This document shows, one piece after another, positions 9,787-52,298 of a DNA stretch of 64,000 nucleotides (the stretch's first letter is position 1; each line of letters opens with the position of its first letter). Below the pieces are notes generated by a model that was not told the origin of the DNA, ran no database searches, and was given only the letters and a program-made list of their open reading frames with translations. Source of the stretch: Dehalococcoides mccartyi. Lineage in GTDB: Bacteria > Chloroflexota > Dehalococcoidia > UBA2979. The stretch lies in the NCBI GenBank assembly GCA_945865925.1, contig CAMBFG010000004.1, positions 46,659 through 110,658 of the forward strand, read 5' to 3'. A program made the translations under genes and the position numbers.

Positions 9787-9905
9787 CGCATACCCCCTTC
9801 ACGTCATTCGTGATTCCAACGGCGGATGCTACACCTGCCGTTCAAGCACGCATGAGGCGGGTATCCCGAGGCAAGGGCTTTAGGGCCTAGCAAGGGTGGC
9901 AATCG

Positions 9906-10457
9906 TCACGCTAGCGGCAGCGGCTCCCCGTCCGGTAACCCCACGTCGAAGACGTTGAGCGTCATCGAGACGAGCCCGTAGTACCCGACGATCCCGACCA
10001 AATCCACAACCCCACGCTCTCCGCCGAGCGTCGCGAGCGCCGCCTGGTACGTGCCGTCCGAGACCCGGTTCGTCGCGAAGTACTCCGTCACGAACGCGTA
10101 CACCGCCCGCTCCGCGTCATCCCGCAGCACCGGCACGGTGCCGGTGCGGACCGCCTCGACGGTCTCCCGAGGTAGCCCCGCCTCGATCGCCATCCGGGCG
10201 TGGGCGAAGAACTCGTACTGCGCTTTCCAGTGCTTCCCGGTCAGGATGATCGCGAACTCGGAGAGGTGCTTTGGTAGGCTGCTGCTGAACCGGCAGAACT
10301 CCCCCACCTTCTGTGCGCGGTCCGCGAGCACGGGCGACCGTAGCCAAGCGTCGAACGGCCCGCGCAGCCCTCCGCGCGGCCCGCTCACGATGGCATCCGC
10401 TACTTCCTTCTGCTCGGGCGTCAGGTTCGCGAGGTCGAGGGGGACGAGGCGTGCCAT
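9906..10457 (-). CDS. carboxymuconolactone decarboxylase (AhpD-like) family protein
   Basis: ORF 9906..10661, internal ATG at 10457 (MARLVPLDLANLTPEQKEV...). Contains ...HWKAQYEFFAHARMAIEAGL, typical of the CMD family. Confidence 0.8.
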   Translation of the reverse strand: MARLVPLDLANLTPEQKEVADAIVSGPRGGLRGPFDAWLRSPVLADRAQKVGEFCRFSSSLPKHLSEFAIILTGKHWKAQYEFFAHARMAIEAGLPRETVEAVRTGTVPVLRDDAERAVYAFVTEYFATNRVSDGTYQAALATLGGERGVVDLVGIVGYYGLVSMTLNVFDVGLPDGEPLPLA

Positions 10458-10643
10458 AGATGTGCTCTCCTTTGGTGACCACGGCTCATACCGAACCGTG
10501 GAAACGAACGACTGGAAGATACAACCGGGGCGGCTGGTAGCGTCACCAATTCCCGCCGGAAATGAGTGCCCCCGTTGCGTACCATGTGTATTGATGACGA
10601 AATGTGGTGGCCACCAGTGAAGGCAACCGCAGAGGTGGTTGCA

Positions 10644-34914: not shown

Positions 34915-35940
34915 ATGTCCAACCGCAGACCGACCCTCCGCCGGCCGGCCCTCGCCCTCGTGATCGCCCTCGCGGCGGTCACGATGTTGGCGTGCGGCAG
35001 CGACGGGCGTCCGACGATCAGCCTGCGGTCGACCGCCACTCCGGCGACCACATTGACCTCCCCGGCGATGAGCGTCCCCGCGGATGACCCCGTGATGAGC
35101 GCCGCCGCCTTCGTCTCTGTCGCCTCACCCGGCCGCCCACTGCCCTCGTTCTGGGCTGGCGGGCCGGCGATGCGCGAGGCCGCGACCTTCGCACCGGCGA
35201 ACGCTGCACTCGCTGCCCTCGTCATGGACGAGGCTTCGGGCCTGGTCCTCTACGAGAAGGATGCTCACCGACAGTTGTCGCCCGCCAGCCTGACGAAGAT
35301 CGCCACCGCGATCCTTGCCGCCGAACATGGCGACCTCGACCGCATGGTCACCGTCGATGTCGACAGCCGCACGATGCGCGGCAGCACGGTGATGGGACTC
35401 ATCCCCGGCGACCGCTTTACGATGCGCGACCTGTTGCACGGCCTGATGATGCCGTCCGGCAACGACGCCGCGCTCGCCATCGGCCGTGCCGTCTCCGGCT
35501 CCGATGAGGCCTTCGTGCGGGAGATGAACCAGCTCTCGCGCCGCCTCGGCCTGACGGACACGAACTGGGCGAACCCCCACGGCCTCAACGGCACAGACCA
35601 CCGCACGAGCGCCTACGACCTGGCGATCCTGTCGCGGTACTACATGTCGTTCCCCGACCTGCGGGATGTCGTCGCAAAGGGCGCCTACTCCGCACGAGGC
35701 GATCGAGCGGTACCGATGGGGACGCTGAACCCGCTCTTCGGCTACCCGGGAGTCGATGGCCTGAAGACGGGCTACACGCGGCTCGCGGGCAACACCATCG
35801 TCACCTCGCGCGTGAAGGACGGCCACCGCATCTTCGTGGTGATCCTGAACGACAGCGCCCGCAGCACGGACGCCTGGGCACTCTCCCAGTGGGCGTTCAC
35901 ATCCTTCCGCTGGCCGGACGTGGCTGCCGCCGAACGCTAG
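34915..35940 (+). CDS. D-alanyl-D-alanine carboxypeptidase (S11, PBP5/DacB-like) lipoprotein
   Basis: ORF 34360..35940, ATG at 34915. Lipobox LAC, SPASLTKI (SxxK), SGND (SxN) and KTGYT (KTG). Confidence 0.9.
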   Translation: MSNRRPTLRRPALALVIALAAVTMLACGSDGRPTISLRSTATPATTLTSPAMSVPADDPVMSAAAFVSVASPGRPLPSFWAGGPAMREAATFAPANAALAALVMDEASGLVLYEKDAHRQLSPASLTKIATAILAAEHGDLDRMVTVDVDSRTMRGSTVMGLIPGDRFTMRDLLHGLMMPSGNDAALAIGRAVSGSDEAFVREMNQLSRRLGLTDTNWANPHGLNGTDHRTSAYDLAILSRYYMSFPDLRDVVAKGAYSARGDRAVPMGTLNPLFGYPGVDGLKTGYTRLAGNTIVTSRVKDGHRIFVVILNDSARSTDAWALSQWAFTSFRWPDVAAAER

Positions 35941-36971
35941 CTCTCCACGGAGACGGGCGTGGGTTGCGCCCGACGGAACGAAGCGTAGACGGGCAGCGTG
36001 ACCAGGAACGGCACCAGGTAGTAGACGAGACGGAAGAGCAACGCCCCGAGTACGGCGTCCTCGATCGGTACCCCCTGCAAGGCCAGCACGGCCGCCAGCG
36101 ACCCGTCCTGTACTCCCATCCCCCCGGGCACCAGCGAGGCGAATCCCACCACCACGGCAATCGAGAAGCCACCCAGCAGGACGCCCAGCGCGACCGGAGC
36201 ACCGACCGCGTCCAGGCAGAGCCACAGAACACCCAGTGCGGCCACCCAATCCAGCGCTAGAAACAGACACGGCCACCACGCTGCGCGAGGGTCGTAACGC
36301 AGTGCATGCGCCATTCGCCCGAGTGTGCGGTCGAAATCCTCGAAGGAGTCGCTGAACGCGCTCCCCCAGCGATCGGGAAGCAGACGGACCACCACTCGGC
36401 CAACCACGTGGATCAACGCCACACGGAGCCGGGCGCTGAACATCGCTGTTGTCGAGAGTCCGAAAAAGATCACCACCAACACCCCACCAGCCATCAGGGT
36501 GCGCCGCCACGCCTCGTCCGTCGCGGGATCACGGACGAGATGAAGGAGGCCGAGAGCCAGCAGAACGAACATCGCCAAGTTGTTCAGGTACGAATGCACC
36601 AATGACATCGCCAGCGTGTCACCGGTCGCGATCCCGTATCGCTTCGAGAGTATGGCGCGGAGCGAGTAGCCCGCGACACCACCAAACGAGATCAAATGAC
36701 TCACCGCCACGGAGACGAAGGCGATCCACATCATCGGCCAGCGCGGCACCGCCACACCGACCACGCGCCCGAGGGACACGAGGCTCGCACTGATGCACGC
36801 GTAGGAGAACGCCGTGAGCAGCAGCGCCGGGATCACCAGTAACCAGTCCGTGTGTCCCAACAGCCCACCCAACCCTCGGATGGTGGAAGCCGCAGCGACG
36901 CAGCCCAGAAGAGCTACTGCGACCAGCAGCCCGATCAGCGTGTGCGAACGGCGACGACGAGTGGCCTGCAT
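35937..36971 (-). CDS. UPF0104 / lysyl-phosphatidylglycerol synthase TM-region (flippase-like) membrane protein
   Basis: ORF 35937..37421, ATG at 36971 (MQATRRRRSHTLIGLL...). Polytopic, with ...SLVPGGMGVQDGSL near the C-terminus. The start overlaps the upstream stop by 1 nt. Confidence 0.8.
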   Translation of the reverse strand: MQATRRRRSHTLIGLLVAVALLGCVAAASTIRGLGGLLGHTDWLLVIPALLLTAFSYACISASLVSLGRVVGVAVPRWPMMWIAFVSVAVSHLISFGGVAGYSLRAILSKRYGIATGDTLAMSLVHSYLNNLAMFVLLALGLLHLVRDPATDEAWRRTLMAGGVLVVIFFGLSTTAMFSARLRVALIHVVGRVVVRLLPDRWGSAFSDSFEDFDRTLGRMAHALRYDPRAAWWPCLFLALDWVAALGVLWLCLDAVGAPVALGVLLGGFSIAVVVGFASLVPGGMGVQDGSLAAVLALQGVPIEDAVLGALLFRLVYYLVPFLVTLPVYASFRRAQPTPVSVES

Positions 36972-37639
36972 CACCGATCCGCCGTCAATCGAGTCAGCGC
37001 GAACGAGACACGCGCGAGGGCAATCGAACCCCCGCTGTAGATCAGAAAGCGATCCTCCCACTCCGGCTCGAACTTCTCCTTGTAGGCACGGAGACCGCGG
37101 TAGGAAAACAGCCGGTTCAGCCGCTCGAACAACTCGTGTACAGCACGCTCTTCGATCGTGGAGTCGGGATCCTCGCCCACCCCCGCGAACGGGGCGAGGC
37201 CTTCGCTGAACCAGCGGAAACCGCGTCCATGCAGATCCAGCATCATCGCCGTGAACAGGAAGTCCATGGTGCCGTTGACCGCATCCGGCTGCTGACGCAT
37301 CAGGTCCACCGTCGCTTCGCCCGGACGGTAAGACGGCACCACGTTCGCGAAGGCCCTCGCGACGCCAGCACGATCGCGCACCACGTAGACGGGCGACAAC
37401 CGAATGTAGTCGCGCGACCACTGGCCCAGGGTGAACCCTCGCTCACGGCGACCGGGGATGGTCAGCCAGCCGTCTGAGATTGCCGCGAGTTCGTCGAGTA
37501 GATGCGAGCTAAGCGGCGCCTCCACGCGCTCCAGAACGCAGCCATCGCGCTCGAACCGGCGACGCAAGTAGCGGAACCACTTCTGCGTGGATGTCTCTGC
37601 TACAAACCGGTCGAGGTCGACCAAGGCTTCCTCACCCAC
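36971..37639 (-). CDS. C-terminal part of MprF-like aminoacyl-phosphatidylglycerol synthase domain (DUF2156)
   Basis: (V)GEEALVDLDRFV...GFTLGQWS...FSYRGLRAYKEKFEPEWEDRFLIY. It is in frame with 37655..38665 and separated from it only by TGA plus 5 codons. Confidence 0.8.
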   Translation of the reverse strand: MGEEALVDLDRFVAETSTQKWFRYLRRRFERDGCVLERVEAPLSSHLLDELAAISDGWLTIPGRRERGFTLGQWSRDYIRLSPVYVVRDRAGVARAFANVVPSYRPGEATVDLMRQQPDAVNGTMDFLFTAMMLDLHGRGFRWFSEGLAPFAGVGEDPDSTIEERAVHELFERLNRLFSYRGLRAYKEKFEPEWEDRFLIYSGGSIALARVSFALTRLTADR

Positions 37640-37654
37640 TTTCAGGACCTGCAG

Positions 37655-38665
37655 TCAGCGCGCGCGATAGGTCGGCAACATCGCCGGAGTGACCTGATGG
37701 AAGGCCGGCAACCACCCGTTGTCCTCACACAGTTCAAGGAACAAATCGAGGGCGGCCTCCATCCCATCGGGTTCTCCGATCGGATTGCCAAGGGCGACTG
37801 CACAACCGGCGGCGACGCTGTACGCGACCACGCCACGCCTAGAACGGTCGAAGACGTAGGCCTTATCCGGCCAGCACTTGAAGAAGTCGAGCGACGAACC
37901 ACCGTATTCCTCTAGCAGTGCACGCACCTCGGCGCGCTCGTGAGGCAGCGTGCGGTGTCGGTAGCGGATCGGTAGCGCGATGGTGAACGCGATCAGCGAG
38001 GCTCCCGCGAACGTGGCAGCGTCCAGCGAGTGCAGGAACCAACGTGCGTATCTCGTGCCGGCCTGAAGGTCCGGGTTCCCGACCAGCAGCATCTGGCGCA
38101 ACGTCCGCCGAGCCGCCTCGGTGAGCGTGAAGTCGAAGCCGAAGTCGCGCTGGTCGAGGTAGGCAAAACCCAGCATGCCGTAAGCAAACGCGAGCACTGC
38201 GACACCGACGGCGAGCGCTACGCCTTGCACCACGCTCCATAGCTCACTGCGCACGGTGAACTGAGAACGGCTCACGACGAGGAGTATGAGGAGCAGTGCG
38301 GGGCCGAGCGCCAGCGGGCCGGTACCCGCCTTCAGGAAATGGGCGACCAGCGCAACGATTGCCGCCGTGACGGCTAACCACCAGGCCACCCGACGCCTCC
38401 GAGCAAGGTGATAAGCGAGGTACACGAGCAACATCCCGAAGACCGCCGAGAGCGGCCGCCCCCAGTGGTGCAGGCCAAACGGCAACGCGTCGCCAAGCAC
38501 GCTCGGACGGCCGGGAAGGCGCATCACCGTCGGAACGCCCAGGGCCAGAAGTCCGTTCAGAAGGGAAAAGAACGCCGCGGAGCGAGCCGTCCAGGGTGCC
38601 AGCCGGAGCATCAGGCGGTTGACCGCGGCGGGTCGAGGCAGGTGGAGGGCAGTATTGCGGTTCAT
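37655..38665 (-). CDS. N-terminal part of MprF-like aminoacyl-phosphatidylglycerol synthase (TM helices plus start of DUF2156 domain), ends at in-frame TGA
   Basis: About 6 TM helices, then ...LLEEYGGSSLDFFKCWPDKAYVFD...GNPIGEP. The stop TGA at 37655-37657 interrupts a continuous domain. Confidence 0.8.
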   Translation of the reverse strand: MNRNTALHLPRPAAVNRLMLRLAPWTARSAAFFSLLNGLLALGVPTVMRLPGRPSVLGDALPFGLHHWGRPLSAVFGMLLVYLAYHLARRRRVAWWLAVTAAIVALVAHFLKAGTGPLALGPALLLILLVVSRSQFTVRSELWSVVQGVALAVGVAVLAFAYGMLGFAYLDQRDFGFDFTLTEAARRTLRQMLLVGNPDLQAGTRYARWFLHSLDAATFAGASLIAFTIALPIRYRHRTLPHERAEVRALLEEYGGSSLDFFKCWPDKAYVFDRSRRGVVAYSVAAGCAVALGNPIGEPDGMEAALDLFLELCEDNGWLPAFHQVTPAMLPTYRAR

Positions 38666-38974: not shown

Positions 38975-39064
38975 GCGATCTTCCCCTGCCACCGCCGCGT
39001 CTCCGCCCCGTTTGAGGTGCTGAGCGCGGCGTGGTAGGTTCGGGCCGATTCACCACACGGTGAG

Positions 39065-39145
39065 CCGCTGGGGGGGCCGCGAGGCTGAGATCCGCAAGGA
39101 CCACCCCTGGAACCTGACCTCGGTTATGCGAGCGTAGGGAAGCGG
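39065..39145 (+). promoter_or_regulatory. TPP (THI-box) riboswitch aptamer
   Basis: P1 helix CCGCT...AGCGG. Conserved cores CTGAGA (39085-90), ACCCCTGGAACCTGA (39102-16) and GCGAGCGTAGGGAA (39128-41). Lies upstream of thiamine-related genes. Confidence 0.9.
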
Positions 39146-39265
39146 AACGAACGATGACGGAGCCCACCGGGCTCGCGTGCCCCATCGGACGTCGCCACAC
39201 CTTCACCCCCTCGCGCACGAGGTCGGGCCGCTGCGGCCACCCACGTATGCGAGAGGGGAGAACCC

Positions 39266-39562: not shown

Positions 39563-40363
39563 ATGTCACGCGCGCTGCTGCTCCTCCGTCGCGCCGCCCG
39601 CGACTACGCGCCCGCGGCGCTGCTGCTGGTCGCGCTTGTCGTGGTGTGGGAAGTCGTCGTGCGCGCCCTCGATGTGGCCCCGTACCTCGTCCCGGCGCCC
39701 AGCCGGATCGCGCGGGCGTTCATGGAGGTGCGCGGCACGCTCCCCGGCCACCTCCGCACGACCACGAGCGAGGCGGCTGTGGGCCTCGCGCTGTCGGCTA
39801 TCCTCGGCGCTGCGTGTGCGGCCCTGCTCGCGTGGTCCACGCCGTTGCGGCGGGCGGTATACCCACTGCTGGTGATCTCGCAGAACGTGCCGCTGGTCGT
39901 GATCGCACCGCTGGTCGTCGTGTGGTTCGGCTTCGGCATGCTGCCGAAGGTGCTCGTCGTCACGCTGATGGGCTTCTTCCCAATCGTCGTCGCGACCACG
40001 GACGGCCTCCTCCGTGCCGACCGCGAACTCATCGAGCTGGCGCGTTCCTACGGCGCCGGCCGGTGGCAGGTGCTCCGCGGCGTCCTCGTACCGTCCGCCG
40101 TGCCCTCGTTCTTCGCCGGGCTACAGATCAGCGCGGCCTACGCCGTGCTCGGCGCGGTGATCGCGGAGTGGGTGGGGGCCAGCAGTGGCCTCGGGTTGTT
40201 CATCACGCGGTCGCAGACGGCGTTCCGCGTCGACCGAGTGTTCGTAGCGGTGGCGGTCATCGCCGCACTCAGCATCGCCTCGTTCGCCGCCGTCCACCTG
40301 GCGGCGCGACTCGCGATGCCCTGGCAGCACTTCGTCCGAGGCGGCGTACAAGAGGAGGTCTGA
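39563..40363 (+). CDS. thiX: ABC transporter permease (NitT/TauT family), ThiX-like
   Basis: Six-TM permease profile. Placed in the riboswitch-controlled operon next to an NMT1/THI5-like binding protein. Confidence 0.8.
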   Translation: MSRALLLLRRAARDYAPAALLLVALVVVWEVVVRALDVAPYLVPAPSRIARAFMEVRGTLPGHLRTTTSEAAVGLALSAILGAACAALLAWSTPLRRAVYPLLVISQNVPLVVIAPLVVVWFGFGMLPKVLVVTLMGFFPIVVATTDGLLRADRELIELARSYGAGRWQVLRGVLVPSAVPSFFAGLQISAAYAVLGAVIAEWVGASSGLGLFITRSQTAFRVDRVFVAVAVIAALSIASFAAVHLAARLAMPWQHFVRGGVQEEV

Positions 40364-43580: not shown

Positions 43581-43624
43581 CCATCGAGTGTAGGCACCGG
43601 TCGCCCGCGGCTTCCGGAAGCGCA

Positions 43625-43725
43625 TACACTCGGAGCACGTGGCCCCCGGGGAAGTCGGTGCAAGACCGACGCTGTCCCGCAACTGTGACCCTCATCAAGG
43701 GAAGTCAGAGCACCGCCCCACGCGT
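43625..43725 (+). promoter_or_regulatory. cobalamin (B12) riboswitch aptamer
   Basis: GGGGAAGTCGGTGCAAGACCGACGCTGTCCCGCAACTGTGA matches the conserved GGGAA..GGTG..CC..GC.G.CCCGCAACTGT core. It is followed by AAGGGAAGTCAGAGCACCGCC (B12-box-like). Lies upstream of a BtuF-like gene. Confidence 0.8.
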
Positions 43726-43821
43726 ACTTGTCGACCTGCGAGGACAGGCGACGGCAGGAGTGGGGCGCCCCTCGGTGTCTCGCTGCGGCCCTCGACACCT
43801 CGCGCCACCGGAGGTGCCACC

Positions 43822-44778
43822 ATGAAGCCACGCACGCTGGTCCCGATCCTCCTCGCGCTCGTCGCTGGCCTCGCCATTGCTTGCGGCGACTCCGTGCCAG
43901 CCGCCTCGACACCCGAGGCGACCGCCGCGGCGAGTGCCCCGACTCCACCCGCGACGTTCCCGATCACGGCGAGCGACCAGGAGGGGAAGCCCCTCACGCT
44001 GGCGAAGCAACCGCGCGCAATCATCTCGTTCTCACCCGGCGTCACAGAGATCCTCTTCGCCATCGGCGCGGGGCCACAGGTCATCGCCGCTGACCAGTTC
44101 TCCGACTACCCAGCGGAAGCGAAGGCGCTGAAGCAACGGGTGAAATACACCAGCCCGGACGTCGAGAGCGCCCTGTCGCTGAACCCCGACCTCGTCATCA
44201 TGTCTCGCGCCCAGCGCACCTCCGTCGAGCGGTTCCGCAGCGCTGGCCTGCCTGTCTTTTACACACCCGAGGCGGACTCCCTCGACGCGATCATGGAGGA
44301 CGTACGGATGTGGGGGCACCTGACCGGCCACGCGGCGGAGGCTGACCAGGTGGCGAATGGCATGCGTGCGCGTATCGAGGCCGTCAAGGTGAAGGTGGCA
44401 CCAGTCGCCGAGGGCCCGCGCGCGTTCTACGAACTGAGCGACTCGCTCTTCTCGGCGGGCGACAAGACCTTCATTGGCTCCATCCTCACACTCCTCAAGG
44501 CGAAGAACGTTGCGAGCGGCGCGGCGACCGACTTCCCGCAGTTGACGGCGGAGGCCGTGATCTCCCGCGACCCGCAGGTCATCTTCCTCGCGGACGCTTC
44601 GAGCGCGGGGCAGAGCCTGGAGACGCTGCGGAAGCGGCCCGGGTGGACCTCGATCAGCGCGGTCAAGGATGGGAAGGTCTACCCGGTTGACCCGAACACC
44701 GGCAATCGCCCGGGGCCGCGGATCGTGCTGGCGCTGGAGGAGATCGGTCGGCTGCTCTACCCCGAGCGCTTCCGGTAA
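43822..44778 (+). CDS. BtuF-like periplasmic binding protein (cobalamin/siderophore class) lipoprotein
   Basis: ORF 43639..44778. ATG at 43822 is preceded by GGAGGTG. Lipobox IAC. Contains IISFSPGVTEILFAIGAG...VIAADQFSDYP and PDLVIM. Confidence 0.85.
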   Translation: MKPRTLVPILLALVAGLAIACGDSVPAASTPEATAAASAPTPPATFPITASDQEGKPLTLAKQPRAIISFSPGVTEILFAIGAGPQVIAADQFSDYPAEAKALKQRVKYTSPDVESALSLNPDLVIMSRAQRTSVERFRSAGLPVFYTPEADSLDAIMEDVRMWGHLTGHAAEADQVANGMRARIEAVKVKVAPVAEGPRAFYELSDSLFSAGDKTFIGSILTLLKAKNVASGAATDFPQLTAEAVISRDPQVIFLADASSAGQSLETLRKRPGWTSISAVKDGKVYPVDPNTGNRPGPRIVLALEEIGRLLYPERFR

Positions 44779-44973: not shown

Positions 44974-46251
44974 GTGCTCTCTGCGCGCGCTGCGATCGTC
45001 TTCGCCCTCGCAGGCACTATCCCTGGCGTCGCGCTGTTCCTGTCCGGCGCCCATTTCGGGACCGTGCCGGACACCGCGCTCTACGGACTCTCCATTGTCT
45101 CCTCCGCCTTCCTGCTCGCCTGGGCTGCCGAGGCGTCAGAGACGGAGATCGCGCAGGGGCTCGCCGTCGCGTTTATCGCGCTGATCGCGGTACTCCCGGA
45201 GTACGCCGTCAGCATGTCGTTCGCGTGGAAGGCAGGGCAGGACCTCGCTTACGCACCATTCGCCGTTGCGAATATGACCGGTGCGAATCGCTTGCTCATT
45301 GGCGCTGCGTGGCCGCTGATTTTCTTCCTCTTCTGGCTGAAAAATCGAGGACGGGCCATCCGGCTAGAGCGTTCCTACAGCGTGGACGTCATCGCGCTTG
45401 CGATGGCGACGCTCTGGTCGTTCACGCTCATGGCGCGCGGGTCAATCACACTGATAGACACCGTGATCTTCGCAGCGATCTTCATTGCCTACGTCGGCAT
45501 CATCATGCGCGCACCTTCCGAGGAGCCTGAACTACTCGGCCCCGCGAAGATCATCGGCGGCATGCGCCGCGGCCCCCGCCGAGGTGCGATCGCGGCGCTC
45601 TTCCTGGTGTCGGCGGTCGCGATCCTCGCGTGCGCGGAGCCCTTTGCGGAAGGGCTGATCCACAGTGGCACCTCGCTGGGGATCGATAAGTTCACCCTCG
45701 TGCAGTGGCTCGCACCGTTCGCCTCGGAGGCGCCAGAGTTCCTGGTCGCGGGCATCCTCGCGTGGCGCGGCCGCGCCGGCGTGGCGATGGGCGCGCTGCT
45801 CTCGTCCAAGGTGAACCAGTGGACGTTGCTCATCGGTGGACTACCGCTGGTGTACGCGATTTCCGCCGGTGGCCTCGACCCATTGCCCCTCGACACCCGC
45901 GAAGTCGAGGAGTTGTACCTGACCGCAGCGCAGTCGGCATTCGCCGTAGCCGTCCTCGTGAGCCTGAGTTTCGCCGGCCGCGAGGCGATCCTGCTGCTGG
46001 CGGTGTTCGCGGTGCAGTTCATCCTCTCAGCCGTCGAGCTGCCACTGCCATTCGAGATCAGGGGCGAGTCAACGCTCACGTCCTCTGATGTGCGCCGCAT
46101 CGCCGGCACGATCTACCTCGTGATGGCCGTCTACACCTTCGTGAAGGAACGCCATGAACTCGCTCGCCTCTGGCGCAGCGCCCGGAAGACCGCACGCGAT
46201 CCGGGCGCCGTCCACGAGGAAGACGCCGACCTGCACGCTCACGTGGCCTAG
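44974..46251 (+). CDS. sodium/calcium exchanger (CaCA) family membrane protein
   Basis: Polytopic with two alpha-repeat-like regions (...AVLPEYAVS... and ...SEAPEFLVAG...). GTG at 44974 is preceded by GAAGGAG. Confidence 0.8.
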   Translation: MLSARAAIVFALAGTIPGVALFLSGAHFGTVPDTALYGLSIVSSAFLLAWAAEASETEIAQGLAVAFIALIAVLPEYAVSMSFAWKAGQDLAYAPFAVANMTGANRLLIGAAWPLIFFLFWLKNRGRAIRLERSYSVDVIALAMATLWSFTLMARGSITLIDTVIFAAIFIAYVGIIMRAPSEEPELLGPAKIIGGMRRGPRRGAIAALFLVSAVAILACAEPFAEGLIHSGTSLGIDKFTLVQWLAPFASEAPEFLVAGILAWRGRAGVAMGALLSSKVNQWTLLIGGLPLVYAISAGGLDPLPLDTREVEELYLTAAQSAFAVAVLVSLSFAGREAILLLAVFAVQFILSAVELPLPFEIRGESTLTSSDVRRIAGTIYLVMAVYTFVKERHELARLWRSARKTARDPGAVHEEDADLHAHVA

Positions 46252-46262
46252 GGACTCGAAGG

Positions 46263-46673
46263 CTAGGCGCGCACCACCAGCACGGGGAGCGTCGCGTCCT
46301 GCAGCACCTGCTGGGTGACGGAGCCGAGGACACCGCGCCACCCACCCGCGCGCTTGCTCGCGATGATCACGAGGTCGGCCTGGCGCTGCTGGGCTTCCTT
46401 GAGCAGACGGTTCGGCACGTCCTCACCGCGGTCGAGGACGACCACCGCCTGCCCCATACCAGCGGTGGCAGCCTGCGCCATCGCGGCGTGCGAGCGTTCC
46501 GTCAGGATCGCCATCGCTTCACGCGTCGAGGGGGCCTGTATATCGGCGGCGTCAATTAGCGGGTTCAACACCTGGACGAGATCGACCTGCCCACCAGCGC
46601 CGGCCAGCACCTGCGCCTGCCGCAGCGCCGCTTGCGCGCCGTCCGAGCCGTCCCATGCCACAAGGATTCGCAT
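46263..46673 (-). CDS. universal stress protein (UspA family)
   Basis: ORF 46263..46760, ATG at 46673 (MRILVAWDGSDGA...). Ends ...DLVIIASKRAGGWRGVLGSVTQQVLQDATLPVLVV. Confidence 0.85.
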   Translation of the reverse strand: MRILVAWDGSDGAQAALRQAQVLAGAGGQVDLVQVLNPLIDAADIQAPSTREAMAILTERSHAAMAQAATAGMGQAVVVLDRGEDVPNRLLKEAQQRQADLVIIASKRAGGWRGVLGSVTQQVLQDATLPVLVVRA

Positions 46674-46713
46674 ACACCACCTCCAGCGCTCGGATCGTAG
46701 CGGAAGCCACTCG

Positions 46714-47636
46714 CTACGGCGTGCGGCGCGTGCGCGGGTCCAGCGACGCGCGCACGCCATCGCCTACTACCTGGAATGCGAGGAACAACACCGCCAGCAG
46801 CCCGACCGGGAACGCCAGCGCTGTCCACTGCACGCGCGCGAACTCGAAGTGTTCCGCGATCAGGAAGCCCACGCTCGGCGTCGGCGGCGCCGCCCCGATC
46901 CCGATGAACGACAACGCCGCCTCCGCGAACACGACGCGAGGCACGAGGAACGTTGCTTCGACGACCACAGGGCCGAGGGCGTTCGGCAGCCAGTGACGCC
47001 ACGCCACTCTCGCTGGCGACGCCCCGAGGGCCTCGCGGCCACGCTGTACTCAGTCACCCGGATCGCCAGCAACTGGCCGCGCACCAGACGCGCCATCGTC
47101 GGCCACGCCGTGATCGAAATCGCGAAGAACAGCAGCAGCAGCGGCGCCTCGGGCGGCACGTTGCGGCCTCGGAGCAGACCATCGAGCGCTGCGCGCAGCA
47201 GGATCACGAGCAACAGGTCAGGGAACGCGAACGCGAACGCGAGGTCCGTCAGCCGCATCAGCACCCCGTCCAGCCGTCGAGGCCCCGCGACCGCCAGCGT
47301 CCCGATCCCCACGCCGAGCGCCGTCACTACCACCACCGAGACCGCGGCAGCCGCGAGGGAGATGCGCAGTCCGATCACCATCCGGCTAAAGATGTCCCGC
47401 GCCAGTTGGTCGGTACCCAGGACATGTGCGCGGCTGGGCGCCTCGAACTTCCCCGTCTCACGCGGCGCGAGCGGGTTGAGCGTCGTCGTCGAGGCGGGCG
47501 CAGCCTCGAGGAACTGTCGTGCGGAGTCGTAGGGTGCGACCGCCTCGACGAACACCGCCACGAGGGCAAGCGCAGCGATCAGCGCAAGCGCCGCCATCGA
47601 GGCACGATCACGTCGGAGCCTCGCCCGCGCGCTCAC
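46714..47636 (-). pseudogene. OppC/DppC-type ABC permease, frameshifted
   Basis: The frame from GTG 47636 reads ...GTDQLARDIFSRMV...ITAWPTMARLVRGQLLAIRVTEYSVAAR and then goes out of frame. ORF 46714..47007 continues ...VAWRHWLPNALGPVVVEATF...DPR. One added G/C at 47028-47032 restores the conserved AARALGASPARVAWRH motif. Length is 923 nt (3n-1). Confidence 0.8.
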
Positions 47637-48037
47637 GCGAGCCGCACTCGAGGGTCGACCGGGTACACGAGGTCGACGGCAAGGTTCGCGGCGAGGACCA
47701 CGACGGCGTAGAACAGCGTGACGCCCATGATCACGCCGTAGTCGCGCTGCGCGATCGACGTCACGAAGAGCGACCCCACGCCCGGCAGACCAAAAATAGA
47801 CTCGACGATGATCGACCCGACGATCAGGTTCGCGAACACCGGCCCAGCCAGCGTCAGCACAGGCACGAGCGCGTTCCTCAGCCCGTGCCGCCACACCACC
47901 GCGCGCTCATCCAACCCCTTCGAGCGCACCATGCGCACGTAGTCGGCGCCCAGCACCTCGATCAACGCGGCGACGAATCTGCGCGTGCACCGATAGTACC
48001 CGCCGAGGATTCTCCCGGCGACGGTGGCATAACATCG
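47633..48037 (-). pseudogene. OppB/DppB-type ABC permease, 3' fragment only (last ~130 aa)
   Basis: ...LIEVLGADYVRMVRSKGLDERAVVWRHGLRNALVPVLT...VDPRVRLA is the C-terminal third of DppB-like permeases. An in-frame stop lies at 48038-40 and no N-terminal TM region lies upstream. The stop overlaps the oppC start (GTGA). Confidence 0.75.
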
Positions 48038-48058
48038 CTATGCTCGATTCGAGGTTTC

Positions 48059-49528
48059 GTGAACGCTCCAGCGCCCCAGCCGCTCGCCTTTGGCACGCTC
48101 CCCGGGCGCGCGCATATCGAAGCGCCCGCTGGCGGCGCGCGGGTGCTGCTCATCTCCACCTACGAACTCGGCCACCAGCCGCTTGGACTCGCCTCGGCTG
48201 CCGCCGCCCTGCGCGCCGCCGGCCACGACGTGCGTACCCTCGACGTTGCTGTGGAGCCGCTCGCGGCTGCCGCCATCCGCGACGTCGACCTCGTCGCGAT
48301 CTCGGTGCCGATGCACACGGCGGCCCGCATCGGCCTCCAGGTCGCCGAGGCAATCCGGCAGGCGAACATCGGCGCGCGTCTCGTCTGCTTCGGGCTATAC
48401 GCCTCACCGCTCGCCGAACACCTCGGCCACCACGCCATCGAAGTCATCGGTGGGGAGTACGAGACCGGTCTGGTCGAGGTGGCCGCGCAGGTCGCAGAGC
48501 ACCGGACCGGTGCCGTCACCGGCGCGGGCGGCGCGCCCTCGCTGCTCCGTCAGCAATACCCCGTCCCCGACCGTCGAGGGCTACCAGCTCTCGACGAGTA
48601 TGCCCGCGTACGCCGTGCCGACGGCGAGCACCTGGCGGGGTACGTGGAGGCAACGCGCGGCTGCGCACACACCTGCAAGCACTGCCCGATTACCCCGGTC
48701 TACGGTGGCGCGCTCCGCCTCGTGCAGCGGGACACTGTCTACGCTGACATCGCCCAGCAGGTCGAGGCGGGCGCGCAGCACATCACCTTCGGCGACCCGG
48801 ACTTCCTGAACGCCGTCCCGCATAGCCTCGCAATCCTGGAGGAGGCGCACCGCCGCTGGCCGGCGCTCACCTTCGACGTCACCGTGAAGGTGGAACACCT
48901 CGTGGAGCACGCCTACGTGCTCTCACGTCTGCGCTCCTTCGGCGTGATCTGGATCACGAGCGCCTTCGAGTCCTGCAACAACGCCATCCTCGAACGCCTC
49001 GACAAAGGCCACACTGTCGAGGAGATGCGACAGGCACTCCGCCTCACCAGCGCGGCGGGCCTCCCCGTGCGCCCGACGTGGGTCGCGTTCACCCCGTGGA
49101 CCACCCTCGATGACGTGATCGAGATGCTCGACTTCATCGCGGAACAACGCCTGCACCGTGCCACGCAGCCCGTCCAGTACGGCCTGCGATTGCTCCTGCC
49201 GCCTGGTTCCCCGCTGAACGACGTGCTGGCCGCTGAGGGCCGCCTGGGCCCCTTCGAAAACGCGTTGCTCACCTACACCTGGACCGCCCTCGATCCGCGT
49301 GTGGACGCCCTCCAGGCCGGGTTGGCCTCGATGGCTGAAGCCGCCGCTGAGGCCAACGAGGATGCCGCGGTGACCTTCGAGCGGGCGCGCACTGCTGCGT
49401 ACGCGGTCGCGGGTCGGCCAGGCCCTGCGGTCCGCGACGCGGGGCCAGACGTGCCCGGGCTCACTGAGTCGTGGTTCTGCTGCGCGGAGCCCACAGCGAG
49501 CCAACTGGCGGCGCTGAGCCTGGTCTAG
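48059..49528 (+). CDS. B12-binding-domain-type radical SAM protein with C-terminal FCCAEPT tail
   Basis: ORF 47519..49528. Chosen start is GTG 48059 (GAGG upstream); GTG 48143 is an alternative. N-terminal domain VLLISTYELGHQPLGLASAAAALRAAGHDV...DLVAISVPMHTA. Radical SAM cluster motif ATRGCAHTCKHCP (CX3CX2C). C-terminus ...LTESWFCCAEPTASQLAALSLV. Confidence 0.85.
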   Translation: MNAPAPQPLAFGTLPGRAHIEAPAGGARVLLISTYELGHQPLGLASAAAALRAAGHDVRTLDVAVEPLAAAAIRDVDLVAISVPMHTAARIGLQVAEAIRQANIGARLVCFGLYASPLAEHLGHHAIEVIGGEYETGLVEVAAQVAEHRTGAVTGAGGAPSLLRQQYPVPDRRGLPALDEYARVRRADGEHLAGYVEATRGCAHTCKHCPITPVYGGALRLVQRDTVYADIAQQVEAGAQHITFGDPDFLNAVPHSLAILEEAHRRWPALTFDVTVKVEHLVEHAYVLSRLRSFGVIWITSAFESCNNAILERLDKGHTVEEMRQALRLTSAAGLPVRPTWVAFTPWTTLDDVIEMLDFIAEQRLHRATQPVQYGLRLLLPPGSPLNDVLAAEGRLGPFENALLTYTWTALDPRVDALQAGLASMAEAAAEANEDAAVTFERARTAAYAVAGRPGPAVRDAGPDVPGLTESWFCCAEPTASQLAALSLV

Positions 49529-49678
49529 GCCTCGGCCAGCGGTGCCGAGCCTCCGCTTAGACCATCGCGCGACGGCGCTGTACCTCGACGGCAGCCGGCA
49601 CGGCAGCGGCCGCGAGGCGAGCGTCCGCGAACGCACCAGGGAGCCGCCCCAGCGAGACGCCACCCGTCCGCGCCCTCG

Positions 49679-49993
49679 ATGGATCGAGGGCGCGGGGATC
49701 TCCCCAATCTGAGCGACGGCGCGGCGCAGCCGCTCGAGGGCTTCTTGCCCGACGGGCTGGCCGTGGTGCTCGCGGCGAACGGTGTCACCTCGGCGGCATG
49801 GCGGGAGCCACTTCGGGAGGGCACGCCGCGACGCGGGACGTCGGGGCGCGTCAGGGTGATGGGTGCCGTCGGGGAGTTCCGTCACGCACGCGATGATAGG
49901 GAGCAGGCGCGGCCTCGGCGCGTGGGTGCGACCGAGCGATCCTCCGGTACGCTTGGAAGGCCTCTCACTCACCACGAACGGAATCTCCGGTGA
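49679..49993 (+). CDS. hypothetical protein (doubtful, Arg-rich)
   Basis: The only plus-strand ORF filling the 460-nt gap. It has high GC3 and G-rich first codon positions. Its stop overlaps the next start (GTGA). It is 17 % Arg and has no RBS. Confidence 0.3.
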   Translation: MDRGRGDLPNLSDGAAQPLEGFLPDGLAVVLAANGVTSAAWREPLREGTPRRGTSGRVRVMGAVGEFRHARDDREQARPRRVGATERSSGTLGRPLTHHERNLR

Positions 49994-50607
49994 ACGCCGA
50001 CGACGAACTCGCCTTCCTCCGCGCCTTCGAGCAGACCGCCGTGACGAAGCCGCAGATCGTTGCTGACAACGTCCTCACGGGCATCTTTCTGACGGACATC
50101 CGCTACCGCACCGCGCTCACCGCCCTGCTGCTCCAGGAGGCCGTCGAGGCGGGACGACGCCTCGCGCTGGTCTGCGCGGCGCTCGCGGGGCGCACCATCC
50201 CGCCAGCGCGTGCCCTCGCACGTCCCCTCCCCAACCTGGACGAGTGGCAGGCGTTCGCTGAGGCAGTCGGCGGATTCGAGGAGTCCGCGCAGATCCTCGA
50301 CTGGCTGCACGTGGACACGTCCGCGTTGCTGAGCGCGGAGGAGATGATCGCGTTCGGCGGGCTGTCGCGGCTCAACTCGGCGGTGCGGGTGCTACAGGAC
50401 GGTCCGCCCGAGGTCTCCACCGAGCGCGACGAAGCGGGCACCGCGATCCTGGTGCTGCGCGCCTACACACGGACGGGTGAGCGCGCCGAAGTGCGGCTGC
50501 CCCTGGTGGACGACCAGATCATCGCGCTGGGTGACATGGCCGGTGACTTCGTCGCGTGGACGCGCGACTTCCTGGGCGCGTACCTGGATGCGCGTTCGGG
50601 CCGCTAG
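49990..50607 (+). CDS. hypothetical protein (205 aa, no domain recognised)
   Basis: GTG at 49990 is the only start in the open frame. Composition is protein-like (Asp/Glu/Ala/Leu rich) and GC3 is high. No SD sequence, so it may depend on coupling to the upstream ORF. Confidence 0.7.
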   Translation: MNADDELAFLRAFEQTAVTKPQIVADNVLTGIFLTDIRYRTALTALLLQEAVEAGRRLALVCAALAGRTIPPARALARPLPNLDEWQAFAEAVGGFEESAQILDWLHVDTSALLSAEEMIAFGGLSRLNSAVRVLQDGPPEVSTERDEAGTAILVLRAYTRTGERAEVRLPLVDDQIIALGDMAGDFVAWTRDFLGAYLDARSGR

Positions 50608-51455
50608 CCTGCCAGACCCGCGAGCAGGATGCCCGCCGCCACCGACACGTTGAGCGAGGTCACCACGGTGCCCTTCGGCGGCACCGCGCACACCTCGTCG
50701 CAGGATTCGAGCACGAGGCGCCGCAGGCCGGCCTCCTCGTTCCCCAGCACGATGAGCCACGGGCGGTCGTGGGGCATATCCCCCAGCGACTTCGTCGCGT
50801 GCTCGGATGTGCCGAGCACCCAGACGCCGGCGGCCTTCGCGGCATCGAGGGCGCGGCGCAGGTTGGTCTCGATCGCGTGGGGAACGGCCTCGACACCACC
50901 GGAGGCGACGTCGTAGACCACGGCGGTCAGCGGAGCGGCGCGGTCGGTCGTCGTGATCACGCCGCGTACGCCGAAGAACGCTGCCGTGCGGAAGATGGCA
51001 CCGACGTTGTGTGGGTCCTGCACACCGTCCAGGGCGACCCAGCGGTCGCCCGCCTGCGCATTCTCGAACAGGCTCGCCAGTGGCGAAGGTTTGCGAGGGC
51101 GTACTTCCGCCTCGGCGCCGGCGCGGCCACCGGCGCGCTCGCGCTCGACGGCGCGGGCGGGAGTAGCTTCCAGGTCGTGGACACGGATCCCTCGCGCACG
51201 GGCGTGCTCGGAGACGTCACGCCACGCCTTCGAGCCGGCCTCACCGGGGAGACGGATATCGAGGACATCAGCGGGACGAGCCTCGAGCATGGCGAGGACG
51301 CTGTGCGGGTTCCGCAGCGTGAGGTTGCCTGCGGGTGCAGCAGCCTCGTCACCGCGGGCCGGTGGGCGTCCGGGCCGGTTCGGACGCGTCGAGCGGCCCG
51401 CGGGCGGCCGAGACGGGCGCGAGGGGCGGTCAGGACGATCGGAGCGGCGGTTCAC
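50604..51455 (-). CDS. TrmH/SpoU family RNA 2'-O-methyltransferase (RlmB-like) with Arg/Pro-rich N-terminal extension
   Basis: Contains DGVQDPHNVGAIFRTAAFFG, LVLGNEEAGL and SLNVSVAAGILL (SpoU motifs). Confidence 0.88.
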   Translation of the reverse strand: MNRRSDRPDRPSRPSRPPAGRSTRPNRPGRPPARGDEAAAPAGNLTLRNPHSVLAMLEARPADVLDIRLPGEAGSKAWRDVSEHARARGIRVHDLEATPARAVERERAGGRAGAEAEVRPRKPSPLASLFENAQAGDRWVALDGVQDPHNVGAIFRTAAFFGVRGVITTTDRAAPLTAVVYDVASGGVEAVPHAIETNLRRALDAAKAAGVWVLGTSEHATKSLGDMPHDRPWLIVLGNEEAGLRRLVLESCDEVCAVPPKGTVVTSLNVSVAAGILLAGLAG

Positions 51456-51974: not shown

Positions 51975-52298
51975 GTGAGCCGAGGCGAGTGGAAGGGCGC
52001 GGACTACTTCCACTTCGCGCGGGGGAGTGCCCTAGTGGTGGAGGTCGCATCCGGGCAGTTCGTGCTGCGCGTGGAGGGCATCTCCGTGCGGAACGGCCCG
52101 GACCTCTTCGTGATGCTGTCCCCCAGCGCGACGGGCTATCAGGACGGCGCACTCAAACTCGGACGGTTGAAGGCGACTGATGGCGCGTTCAACTACGACA
52201 TCCCGATGGGGACCGACATCGCGAAGTTCCAGAGTGTCGTCATCTGGTGCGAGCGGTTCACCACGCTCTTCGGCACCGCCGCGTTCACGAAGTCGTAG
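51975..52298 (+). CDS. DM13 domain protein (probably the C-terminal part of the preceding ORF)
   Basis: GEWKGADYFHFARGSALVV...FVLRVEGISVRNGPDLFVMLS...FQSVVIWCERFTTLFGTA matches the DM13 pattern. Confidence 0.75.
   Translation: MSRGEWKGADYFHFARGSALVVEVASGQFVLRVEGISVRNGPDLFVMLSPSATGYQDGALKLGRLKATDGAFNYDIPMGTDIAKFQSVVIWCERFTTLFGTAAFTKS

Follow-up and report, generated by a model that had tools for sequence, protein, structure and literature searches.

[quoted passage not shown]

ArsL, a radical SAM enzyme with an RCCLKC tail that acts in arsinothricin biosynthesis, cleaves SAM into methylthioadenosine (MTA) and a 3-amino-3-carboxypropyl (ACP) radical, for which cobalamin is unnecessary in vitro, and it shares this ACP-radical chemistry with Dph2; the cysteines of its C-terminal RCCLKC motif bind As(III), and the ACP group is joined to the arsenite held by this tail (10.1101/2024.02.01.577332; 10.64898/2026.04.29.721666). 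Another group of radical SAM proteins has been named after its tail, the CUAEP/CCAEP-tail radical SAM (seleno)proteins (NCBIfam model NF040546). The family is large, most of its members are selenoproteins, and it is widespread among uncultured lineages, the Dehalococcoidia and Poribacteria included. The preprint of Haft counts it among the few families with a CU motif, while a search of the literature on CUAEP/CCAEP returned one passing mention only, in which the family is named as uncharacterised. Here, we describe a gene found in the window, i.e. the whole stretch of 64,000 nucleotides that was analysed. It represents an intact Cys-type copy of this named but uncharacterised family, and it occurs by itself in a Dehalococcoidia genome of high GC content, flanked by decaying genes on either side (Table 1).

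The radical SAM gene, its domains and its tail

The open reading frame starts with a GTG codon and is translated into 489 amino acids, with a third-position GC content of 0.8-0.94 along its length; it is real, far beyond chance. The start codon is supported because the N-terminal 28 residues, which include a QPLxFGxLPGR motif, are conserved in clade homologs. The protein matched NF040546 with 561.3 bits (E = 1.5e-168; curated cutoff 500 bits), whereby residues 29-484 cover model positions 1-467 of 468, which makes it a member of the CUAEP/CCAEP-tail family. The Pfam models for the B12-binding domain (PF02310, 41.9 bits, cutoff 32.1) and the radical SAM core (PF04055, 44.2 bits, cutoff 29.5) were also matched above their cutoffs. 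The AF2 model reached a pLDDT of 89.8 and a pTM of 0.89, and its best Foldseek matches are radical SAM enzymes with a B12-type domain (OxsB, AprD4, TsrM, MgmA, TokK), while the sequence search against the PDB gave no match at E <= 0.001. C202, C206 and C209 of the cluster motif are invariant in 80 homologs; besides them only C474 is invariant, plus Cys or Sec at position 475.

The tail cysteines, residues 474 and 475, are encoded by TGC TGC at 49478-49483 and lie within WFCCAEPT (residues 472-479), close to the C-terminus ...SWFCCAEPTASQLAALSLV that precedes the stop. All homologs of full length carry the motif WFC[C/U]AEP. Among 77 genome loci the second tail codon is TGA in 57, TGC in 15 and TGT in 5 cases, and the AEPT..QL frame is conserved after it. 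Moreover, a 7-bp hairpin behind the TGA covaries, with 32 double-change cells compared with 11.5 in shuffles (none of 500 shuffles was as high). The in-frame TGA together with the covarying SECIS hairpin is the Sec form of the homologs, and the window harbours the Cys variant, with TGC TGC in place of TGA and SECIS. A remnant SECIS in the tail of the window gene was considered and rejected; members of the Cys clade have a degraded hairpin.

The sequence-only reading had proposed a 489-aa B12-binding-type radical SAM protein with a CAHTCKHC motif, which is now confirmed by Pfam, NCBIfam and the coding signal, and the family name that it gave proved to be exact. Its expectation that Radical_SAM, B12-binding and a tail-family model would all be matched was borne out, and likewise the conservation of the CCAEP/CUAEP tail in all full-length homologs. 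It was also right on the existence of the CCAEP motif and of Sec variants with a SECIS element, but it had assigned Sec to the first cysteine, whereas it occupies the second position (C-U-AEP), and the stated distance of 13 residues to the C-terminus was close, with 14 residues following the second Cys.

Table 1. Features of the radical SAM locus (positions refer to the window)
Feature	Position	Strand	Remarks
OppC-type permease pseudogene	46723..47546	-	frameshift at about 47031-47034
OppB-type permease remnant	47642..47992	-	only the match to residues 198-312 of the 314-aa protein of locus L003 survives (tblastn)
CCAEP-tail radical SAM gene	48059..49528	+	489 aa plus stop; intact Cys-type NF040546 member; HMM and AF2 model
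B12-binding-like Rossmann domain, N-terminal	48146..48481	+	residues 30-141; PF02310 and Foldseek
Radical SAM core	48647..49138	+	residues 197-360; PF04055
Cluster motif C202-x3-C206-x2-C209 (CAHTCKHC)	48662-48685	+	residues 202-209; direct reading of the translation
Tail motif C474-C475-A-E-P (TGC TGC GCG GAG CCC)	49478..49492	+	second Cys is the Sec position in most homologs
Pseudogene remnants	49658..49885	-	two joined pieces: 49777-49658, C-terminal part of a 345-aa gene; 49885-49769, first 39 codons of a BTAD/TPR regulator
104-aa ORF, spurious	49679..49993	+	antisense to the minus-strand remnants; weak, ambiguous frame signal
205-aa conserved hypothetical protein gene	49990..50607	+	third-position GC 0.86; 64 homologs
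SpoU/TrmH-type RNA methyltransferase	50604..51455	-	Pfam SpoU_methylase 121.5 bits; convergent, 4-bp overlap with the 205-aa gene

The second-best NCBIfam match of the protein is the ArsL model NF040542, with 292.3 bits over residues 29-421, which is below its cutoff of 450. In BLASTP, 33% identity over 413 residues was found with the Alicyclobacillus ArsL (E = 3e-76), and 79 of the 141 family columns conserved at >=95% are identical in three ArsL proteins. ArsL is the closest characterised relative, and NF040546 is its sister family.

Genomic surroundings

The family-wide partners of the radical SAM gene are an NfuA-type protein and an ATP-grasp ligase. A gene for an NfuA-type Fe-S carrier, in which a degenerate A-type domain is combined with an Nfu CxxC domain, occurs in 52 of 80 family loci; as a rule it shares the strand of the radical SAM gene and precedes it by 0-50 bp. 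An L-amino-acid-ligase (LAL)-type ATP-grasp gene is found in 39/80 loci. At the alphaproteobacterial locus L069 the genes for NfuA, the radical SAM protein and the ATP-grasp are co-directional with gaps of 8 and 5 bp, while 37 of 38 loci have a convergent and not a co-transcribed ATP-grasp gene, a count that is inflated by shared ancestry, most of the 38 loci being from Dehalococcoidia. The ArsL clusters on plasmids of Alicyclobacillus, Priestia and Bacillus cereus carry an ATP-grasp of the same type (~410 aa), which shares 26% identity over its full length with the CUAEP-linked one, a level generic for the fold; a literature search on arsinothricin plus ATP-grasp yielded nothing pertinent. 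Genes related to ars, mercury or selenium were not enriched among 79 downstream neighbours across the family. In the window's own clade (16 loci) both NfuA and ATP-grasp are absent within 10 kb, and tblastn of the 64-kb window revealed no homologs of NfuA, LAL ATP-grasp or CopA. Instead, the neighbours of the radical SAM gene in the window are Usp, a Na/Ca exchanger, opp remnants, SpoU, DM13 and a CoA-transferase.

On the upstream side, tblastn placed the OppC sequence in two segments of different frames (aa 30-198 at 47546-47034 and aa 200-302 at 47031-46723), and no match to OppA (608 aa in L003) was found in the window. An opp/dpp operon truncated at this locus had already been noticed in the sequence-only reading, which agrees with the truncated or frameshifted minus-strand opp genes found here. 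A cobalamin riboswitch and a BtuF-like gene are situated 4.3 kb upstream of the radical SAM gene. A link between the riboswitch and the radical SAM gene was set aside, because the riboswitch fronts the BtuF-like gene and two unrelated genes plus pseudogenes intervene. The Rfam scan of 46-52 kb at permissive E did not detect any element, and the promoter/terminator scan of 47600-50800 gave nothing with a method that is uninformative in a 70% GC Chloroflexi genome.

On the downstream side, the 461-bp gap between the radical SAM and the 205-aa gene consists of remnants of the opposite-strand genes of relatives, the rest of which was lost in a deletion of some 5 kb. The remnants were identified by tblastn with L003 proteins, whose intact genes were assigned by Pfam, and by DNA alignment with L002. 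A remnant of the cytochrome c gene that is present in relatives was not found in the window. The 104-aa ORF had been called doubtful from the sequence, and it is indeed an artefact antisense to these remnants, with no Pfam or NCBIfam match and no tblastn match in 80 related loci. It overlaps the 205-aa ORF via a GTGA stop/start, and the clean coding signal is restricted to the latter. The overlap described in the sequence-only reading is present, and the solid nature of the 205-aa ORF, also part of that reading, is verified by coding signal and homologs.

All 64 homologs of the 205-aa protein belong to Chloroflexota or Dehalococcoidia MAGs; a distant relative, P0208, lies on a 776-bp contig without context. 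The alignment profile retrieved 39 clusters only among 1.84 billion representative proteins, all similar in length and without any fusion to known domains. Its AF2 model is confident (pLDDT 89.6). With this model, Foldseek found nothing in the PDB at E <= 0.001 (best E 0.04, TM below 0.25), the PDB sequence search returned only noise (E about 0.5), and in Pfam/NCBIfam only a sub-threshold SDR fragment (16.8 bits) appeared. The protein thus matched no profile family or solved structure, in agreement with the sequence-only reading, which saw no recognisable domain in it. A homolog occurs in 11 of 80 radical SAM loci, all in the close Cys-type clade, where it is always located downstream on the same strand. 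The distance is 330-840 bp in L002, L007, L008, L015 and L074, while 5.7-7 kb of opposite-strand genes split the pair in L001, L003, L009 and L010, and a cytochrome c gene lies between them in L006, L007, L008 and L015. The SpoU methylase adjoins the 205-aa homolog in 11 of 11 loci having one. The three-gene block with co-occurrence of the 205-aa and radical SAM genes, as proposed earlier, did not hold up against this distribution, with 11/80 loci, distances of 0.3-7 kb and SpoU as the constant neighbour. The 205-aa ORF is a real lineage-specific syntenic neighbour, which is unrelated to the radical SAM system.

Possible chemistry and rival explanations

The reading that we tentatively prefer, although we give it somewhat less than an even chance, is an intact stand-alone CCAEP-type enzyme that might perform an ArsL-like transfer of ACP to a soft atom on its Cys-Cys/Sec tail. 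In such an enzyme the [4Fe-4S] cluster bound by CX3CX2C would reductively cleave SAM, probably at the C-gamma-S bond, thereby yielding MTA and the ACP radical. The Cys-Cys pair of the flexible C-terminus (Cys-Sec in most relatives) would hold a soft heteroatom, for instance the metalloids or chalcogens As, Sb, Se or S, to which the ACP group would be attached, and an unusual amino acid X-CH2-CH2-CH(NH2)-COOH would result. Elsewhere in the family, the NfuA-type carrier encoded upstream would presumably supply the Fe-S cluster, and the nearby LAL-type ATP-grasp may ligate the product. The regiochemistry of SAM cleavage, the substrate and the functions of both the tail and the partner proteins are inferred from ArsL as the nearest characterised relative; the tail as substrate holder is favoured first because of the homology to ArsL. 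Some observations count against an ArsL-like mechanism, namely two tail chalcogens versus three Cys, no enrichment of As, Hg or Se genes, and an own clade without partners. It would go further, and seems doubtful to us, to regard the family as a second ArsL-type noncanonical radical SAM system, in which the ACP radical would forge a C-Se, C-S or C-Sb bond on the atom held by Cys-Sec to give a new amino acid, the L-amino-acid ligase would convert it to a dipeptide and the dedicated NfuA would keep the cluster loaded.

A redox-active C-terminal arm, as suggested in the sequence-only reading, is a live rival, which we consider possible but rather unlikely. It assumes a canonical 5'-deoxyadenosyl-radical enzyme acting on a small molecule or a protein, the Cys-Sec/Cys-Cys tail of which would be a mobile redox or H-atom-donating arm that quenches a radical on the product or recycles electrons. 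Redox centres formed by adjacent Cys and Sec residues of a C-terminal tail are a classic theme, known from thioredoxin reductase. The canonical CX3CX2C motif, the partial TIM-barrel radical SAM fold and a tail with no more than two conserved chalcogen residues fit this assumption, and the pLDDT of the AF2 model drops to 69 and then to 53 in the tail, which is consistent with a mobile arm. However, ArsL makes an ACP radical with the same canonical motif, its tail binds the substrate, and 79/141 family-conserved positions are common to both. The structural neighbourhood could also point to a cobalamin-dependent (class B) enzyme, in which cobalamin would be bound by the N-terminal domain and methylation would take place on a carbon or metal(loid) that the CU/CC tail holds, echoing the CU motif found in some members of the corrinoid protein HgcA. 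This is unlikely in our view. Haft's preprint notes that CU motifs are common to HgcA and the SAO system and suggests an interaction with heavy metals. The Pfam B12-binding match above cutoff, the cobalamin radical SAM enzymes OxsB, TsrM, MgmA, TokK and CysS as best structural neighbours, and the upstream riboswitch with its BtuF-like gene are in line with it, but all class B equivalog models remained at <=54 bits compared with cutoffs of 251-650, ArsL works without cobalamin despite having the same domain, and the riboswitch controls a different gene. Moreover, AprD4, which is not known to use cobalamin, is also among the best structural matches.

Sulfur or selenium insertion appears quite improbable. 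Here, the Fe-S cluster or a tail-bound persulfide/perselenide would be consumed, with a carbon radical attacking S or Se to form, for example, a homocysteine- or selenohomocysteine-type product, and NfuA would rebuild the cluster, as it does with the sacrificed cluster of LipA and MiaB. The NfuA-type carrier directly upstream in 52/80 loci, the presence of MiaB among the structural neighbours and the Sec preference, which suggests chalcogen chemistry, support this possibility, yet there is no second conserved Cys triad for an auxiliary cluster, and NfuA may simply load the radical SAM cluster. Finally, one functional operon of the radical SAM, 104-aa and 205-aa ORFs, with the 205-aa protein as dedicated partner or substrate, would agree with the same orientation of the three ORFs and the constant downstream, same-strand position of the 205-aa homolog in all 11 clade loci. 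This model is very improbable and already largely refuted, given the absence of the homolog from 69/80 radical SAM loci, the intervening opposite-strand or cytochrome c genes in relatives, SpoU as its invariant neighbour, and a 104-aa ORF without any homolog.

Significance and comparison with known systems

[quoted passage not shown] With the CUAEP/CCAEP family, the range of this chemistry could grow to include new carbon-heteroatom bonds and new natural amino acids. The value of the window copy is practical rather than surprising. It is naturally Cys, intact and stand-alone, and such a natural variant can be expressed without the Sec machinery, which would make it the easiest entry point for heterologous expression. 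Furthermore, the family context offers concrete co-expression partners and testable predictions regarding the NfuA operon and the LAL-type ATP-grasp also present in ArsL clusters, and Thermomicrobium roseum DSM 5159, a named strain assumed to be culturable, has a family member. The 104-aa and 205-aa ORFs can be removed as a false lead outside the radical SAM system.

Compared with the NF040546 family, the window protein shows a full-model match with the B12-like domain, the CX3CX2C motif and the WFC-C/U-AEPT tail all in place. It differs by a clade-specific N-terminal extension of 28 residues, by being a Cys variant without TGA and SECIS, and by the lack of the NfuA and ATP-grasp neighbours present at most family loci. 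The radical SAM enzymes with a B12-type domain (OxsB, TsrM, AprD4, MgmA, TokK, CysS) have the same Rossmann-plus-radical-SAM architecture (Foldseek E 1e-17 to 1e-11, TM about 0.55-0.64), whereas the identity is only 14-19% and no class B family model passed; cobalamin binding is putative and the similarity is at the level of the fold. Neighbouring Cys and Sec residues, placed on a terminal or flexible segment, are also known from thioredoxin reductase (GCUG), HgcA, the SAO system and MerT CU motifs, but their folds are unrelated and the pair serves as redox shuttle or metal ligand. Dph2 of diphthamide synthesis, where reductive C-gamma-S cleavage of SAM gives an ACP radical, might be a mechanistic analogue; it is a non-homologous Fe-S enzyme without CX3CX2C and without the radical SAM TIM-barrel fold.

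Several differences separate the window protein from ArsL. The tails of the compared ArsL proteins end with KRCCLKC and contain three Cys, whereas the window protein has FCCAEPT with two; moreover, the CUAEP-family tail motif is preceded by an insertion of ~45 residues and followed by 11-35 further residues. H39, H86, H208 and H318 are invariant in the CUAEP/CCAEP family and replaced in ArsL, therefore the substrate or the chemistry could differ. The window lacks the arsM, arsR, ACR3 and ArsN context, and the NfuA partner is known only from the CUAEP/CCAEP family. Nevertheless, both proteins have the same domain order and a Cys-rich motif in the C-terminal tail, and both families recur beside LAL-type ATP-grasp genes.

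A radical SAM gene between two decaying flanks

The GTG start of the gene for the radical SAM protein (rSAM) is supported by the conservation of its N-terminal 28 residues (QPLxFGxLPGR) among the clade homologs, and the third-position GC of 0.8-0.94 throughout the ORF represents the usual coding signature in a genome of 68-70% GC. Translation places the cluster motif CAHTCKHC at residues 202-209 and gives a C-terminus reading SWFCCAEPTASQLAALSLV before the stop codon; Pfam detected a B12-binding domain (41.9 bits, cutoff 32.1) and a Radical_SAM domain (44.2 bits, cutoff 29.5). These results confirm the ORF and motifs described in the sequence-only reading, which had also named the family exactly: the NCBIfam model for the "CUAEP/CCAEP-tail radical SAM (seleno)protein", NF040546, aligns along its full length with 561.3 bits at a curated cutoff of 500, and the membership is almost certain. 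Among 5.8 billion proteins, over 7,700 were related at E <= 1e-20, the nearest ones from Dehalococcoidia and Chloroflexota MAGs, which reveals the lineage of the source. A literature search on the family found nothing beyond one sentence in a 2022 preprint, where it is mentioned as uncharacterised and counted with the small number of selenoproteins that have a CU motif. The window gene is a further member of this known, uncharacterised family and no new kind of system.

The gene stands intact amid two decaying flanks. In the related locus L003, three minus-strand genes for a 345-aa unknown protein, a HDOD protein and a 1088-aa BTAD/TPR regulator separate rSAM from the homolog of the 205-aa ORF (orf205). 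Fragments are all that survives of such genes in the window (see table), hence about 5 kb has been deleted, and the same deletion scar is carried by locus L002. The 104-aa ORF (orf104), doubted from the beginning, is rejected as an artefact antisense to these remnants; neither a homolog in the 80 related loci nor a domain in Pfam or NCBIfam was found for this ORF. The upstream decay mirrors the downstream one: as proposed, an opp/dpp operon is truncated here, with OppC frameshifted, the OppB-type gene reduced to its last ~115 codons, and no match in the window to the OppA protein of L003. Matches to OppB and OppC genes are kept in L003, L005, L009 and L010; none were found in L001, L002, L004 and L014.

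The downstream orf205 is a real gene with a third-position GC of 0.86, 64 homologs and a strongly conserved motif, KPQVVADNVLTGIFL. It had been regarded as solid and without recognisable domain, and indeed no profile of Pfam or NCBIfam recognised it, and just 39 clusters were recovered when its own profile was run against 1.84 billion representative proteins. AlphaFold confidently predicted a helical bundle, a sheet of three strands and a long helix at the C-terminus (pLDDT 89.6, pTM 0.88), for which Foldseek found no match in the PDB (best E 0.04, TM <0.25). The three genes had been proposed to form one block, an operon that we consider highly improbable. Homologs of orf205 do accompany rSAM in 11 of the 80 loci, each within the close Cys-type clade, at distances of 0.3 to 7 kb; the gap is filled by the minus-strand block (345-aa unknown, HDOD, BTAD/TPR), by a monoheme cytochrome c lipoprotein or, in L012, by a cupredoxin. 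The constant neighbour is a convergent SpoU/TrmH methylase, which abuts the orf205 homolog in 11/11 loci. The pairing of rSAM and orf205 is local synteny in one lineage and not a functional block; neither orf104 nor orf205 is a partner of rSAM.

Coordinates of features in the window and in related loci
Feature	Locus	Position	Strand	Remark
rSAM	window	48059-49528	+	GTG start, 489 aa
orf104	window	49679-49993	+	104 aa, GTGA overlap with orf205
orf205	window	49990-50607	+	205 aa
Remnant of 345-aa protein, residues 273-311	window	49777-49658	-	match to L003 protein
Remnant of BTAD/TPR regulator, residues 1-39	window	49885-49769	-	match to L003 protein
OppC-type gene	window	frameshift near 47031-47034	-	match to L003 protein
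Clade-synteny ORF	window	46263-46760	-	
Clade-synteny ORF	window	44974-46251	+	
Clade-synteny ORF	window	51975-52298	+	
Cobalamin riboswitch	window	43591-43734	+	RF00174, 36.3 bits (gathering score 31.5)
Putative periplasmic binding lipoprotein	window	43639-44778	+	BtuF/FecB-like
TPP riboswitch	window	39060-39157	+	RF00059, 66.7 bits
Membrane permease-like ORF	window	39563-40363		downstream of TPP riboswitch
Putative MprF-like pieces	window	35937-37421, 36971-37639, 37655-38665	-	overlapping/abutting
TRD_RS12835	L082 (T. roseum, NC_011961.1)	8965-10460		RefSeq CDS
3' end of rSAM and its copy	L030	9260-9332 and 12089-12161		73 bp, 97% identical
Extra A-type gene	L028	13124-13579	-	
Extra A-type gene	L031	11666-12010	-	
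Extra A-type gene	L032	13400-13732	-	
Monoheme cytochrome c (example)	L007	7005-7598	+	
Cupredoxin	L012	2877-3443		in cytochrome c position

Some further features of the region were recorded. Within the clade, rSAM is surrounded by conserved genes for a Na/Ca-exchanger-type membrane protein, a universal stress protein, a DM13 domain protein and a family III CoA-transferase, which have no evident link to it. Locus L001 (QZJT01000025.1), labelled Phycisphaerales bacterium SURF_32, carries an 84% identical rSAM in full synteny with the Dehalococcoidia loci; the label probably reflects a mis-binned contig. The Rfam cobalamin riboswitch 4.3 kb upstream of rSAM directly precedes an ORF whose product has a signal-peptide-like N-terminus, and is probably unrelated to rSAM. 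Farther away, a TPP riboswitch was found, and the translations of three ORFs resemble pieces of a lysyl-phosphatidylglycerol synthase in a stretch of reduced GC (0.64) and strong AT skew (0.28), which may represent a split or frameshifted gene.

Selenocysteine in the C-terminal tail

Many predicted rSAM homologs end abruptly at PGLTESWFC. At the DNA level the tail is visible in 77 of the 80 loci: the codon after the tail Cys is TGA in 57, TGC in 15 and TGT in 5 of them, and the frame runs on as AEPT..QLAPL.. in all 77, therefore selenocysteine is the second residue of the tail pair. The expectation of Sec-containing members thus holds, with the position corrected from the first to the second residue. 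The expected hairpin was also found; it has 7 bp and an AGUUG-type loop, and starts 13 nucleotides past the TGA. Among 26 diverse sequences, 84% of the hairpin cells pair, and both-side changes occur in 32 cells compared to 11.5 in shuffles, a value that none of 500 shuffles reached; slid controls gave just 3-9 such cells. This covariation identifies the hairpin as a bacterial SECIS element. The EEQLAPL codons encode it, which explains part of the conservation of this peptide. The window gene and its relatives L001-L015 and L074 are Cys-Cys variants with a degraded hairpin.

Two single loci deserve mention. In Thermomicrobium roseum, the annotated CDS TRD_RS12835 stops at an in-frame TGA, beyond which the frame reads AEPLEDPSGPVASQVRMVD; hence the annotated protein is truncated at selenocysteine. 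In L030, the rSAM 3' end with tail codons and SECIS occurs again 2.8 kb downstream of the gene; this copy may stem from a rearrangement or represent an orphan fragment bearing a SECIS.

Recurrent neighbours in the family

Clustering of every ORF from the 80 loci revealed two recurrent neighbours. An NfuA-type Fe-S carrier, whose A-type domain lacks Cys and whose Nfu domain contains GGGCxGCGM, occurs in 52/80 loci, typically on the same strand and 0-50 bp upstream of rSAM. An ATP-grasp protein of ~410 aa with L-amino-acid-ligase architecture (ATPgrasp_N, ATP-grasp_4, LAL_C2) is encoded in 39/80 loci, mainly convergent and downstream. Among 43 representative loci with mutual rSAM identity below 75%, the ATP-grasp gene is one of the two nearest downstream genes in 19, and no other Pfam family was enriched at these positions, nor were ars, mer or selenium genes found there. 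In the alphaproteobacterial MAG locus L069, the three genes point the same way in the order NfuA-rSAM-ATP-grasp, 8 and 5 bp apart. Poribacteria kept NfuA and have no ligase; single loci of Gemmatimonadota, Nitrospirota and Vicinamibacteria have neither. In one named strain, T. roseum DSM 5159, the megaplasmid NC_011961 has a family copy (43% identity) with genes for a PLP aminotransferase, an MFS transporter and a GNAT on its flanks. Neither partner was found within 10 kb of rSAM in the window's clade, nor was a homolog of either found in the 64-kb window; for this family the locus is unremarkable, and it is bare of context.

In L028, L031 and L032, the ATP-grasp gene has a further small gene of A-type (Fe-S_biosyn/IscA-like) immediately beyond it, hence two Fe-S carrier genes surround some rSAMs. 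A subclade of ~65% identity (L006, L007, L008, L010, L011, L013, L015) has a monoheme cytochrome c with lipoprotein-like signal on the same strand directly downstream of rSAM; no trace of this gene or of the cupredoxin gene was found in the window.

Possible chemistry and relation to ArsL

By homology, the best-supported, still tentative reading is that rSAM acts like ArsL, the arsenic-carbon bond-forming enzyme of arsinothricin biosynthesis. Despite a canonical CX3CX2C motif, ArsL splits SAM at the C-gamma-S bond into methylthioadenosine and a 3-amino-3-carboxypropyl (ACP) radical, does not require cobalamin in vitro, and binds As(III) by the three Cys in the RCCLKC tail at its C-terminus (10.1101/2024.02.01.577332; 10.64898/2026.04.29.721666). 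By analogy, we infer each step for rSAM: the Cys-Sec or Cys-Cys tail would offer a soft atom as acceptor of the ACP group, giving an unusual amino acid; a ligase may elongate this product, and NfuA would maintain the cluster.

Other chemistry has to be weighed. That rSAM makes the canonical 5'-deoxyadenosyl radical, with the tail as an arm for redox or H-atom donation like that of thioredoxin reductase, is possible yet doubtful; the Cys pair suits such an arm, and ArsL yields its ACP radical with the same canonical motif. A true cobalamin-dependent class B enzyme acting on a metal(loid) appears unlikely. The AF2 model (pLDDT 89.8, pTM 0.89; lower in the tail alone, 69, then 53) has OxsB, AprD4, TsrM, MgmA, TokK and CysS, radical SAM enzymes with a B12-type domain, as top PDB neighbours, followed by MiaB, and a PDB sequence search found no sequence-level relative among solved structures. 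Slightly less likely still is the insertion of S or Se at the expense of an Fe-S cluster or persulfide with NfuA repairing the loss, which would suit the frequent NfuA gene. As a target the family is attractive, and the natural Cys form and the partner genes found here open the question to direct tests.

The ArsL-like reading can be compared with its model in several respects. NF040542, the ArsL model, is second-best for rSAM (292 bits, under its cutoff of 450), and the protein is 33% identical to Alicyclobacillus ArsL over 413 residues. Three ArsL proteins have the identical residue in 79 of the 141 columns that are conserved at >=95% in the family; H39, H86, H208 and H318 are specific to the CUAEP/CCAEP family. 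ArsL clusters on Bacillota plasmids (L083, L084, L085) share a gene pair for a carboxymuconolactone-decarboxylase-family protein and an ATP-grasp, besides genes for a GTP-binding protein, an aquaporin and ArsN; a literature search for arsinothricin and ATP-grasp yielded one paper, which does not discuss an ATP-grasp in such clusters. This ~410-aa ATP-grasp in the clusters of Alicyclobacillus, Priestia and Bacillus cereus plasmids is of the same type as the CUAEP-linked ligases, with which it shares 26% identity.
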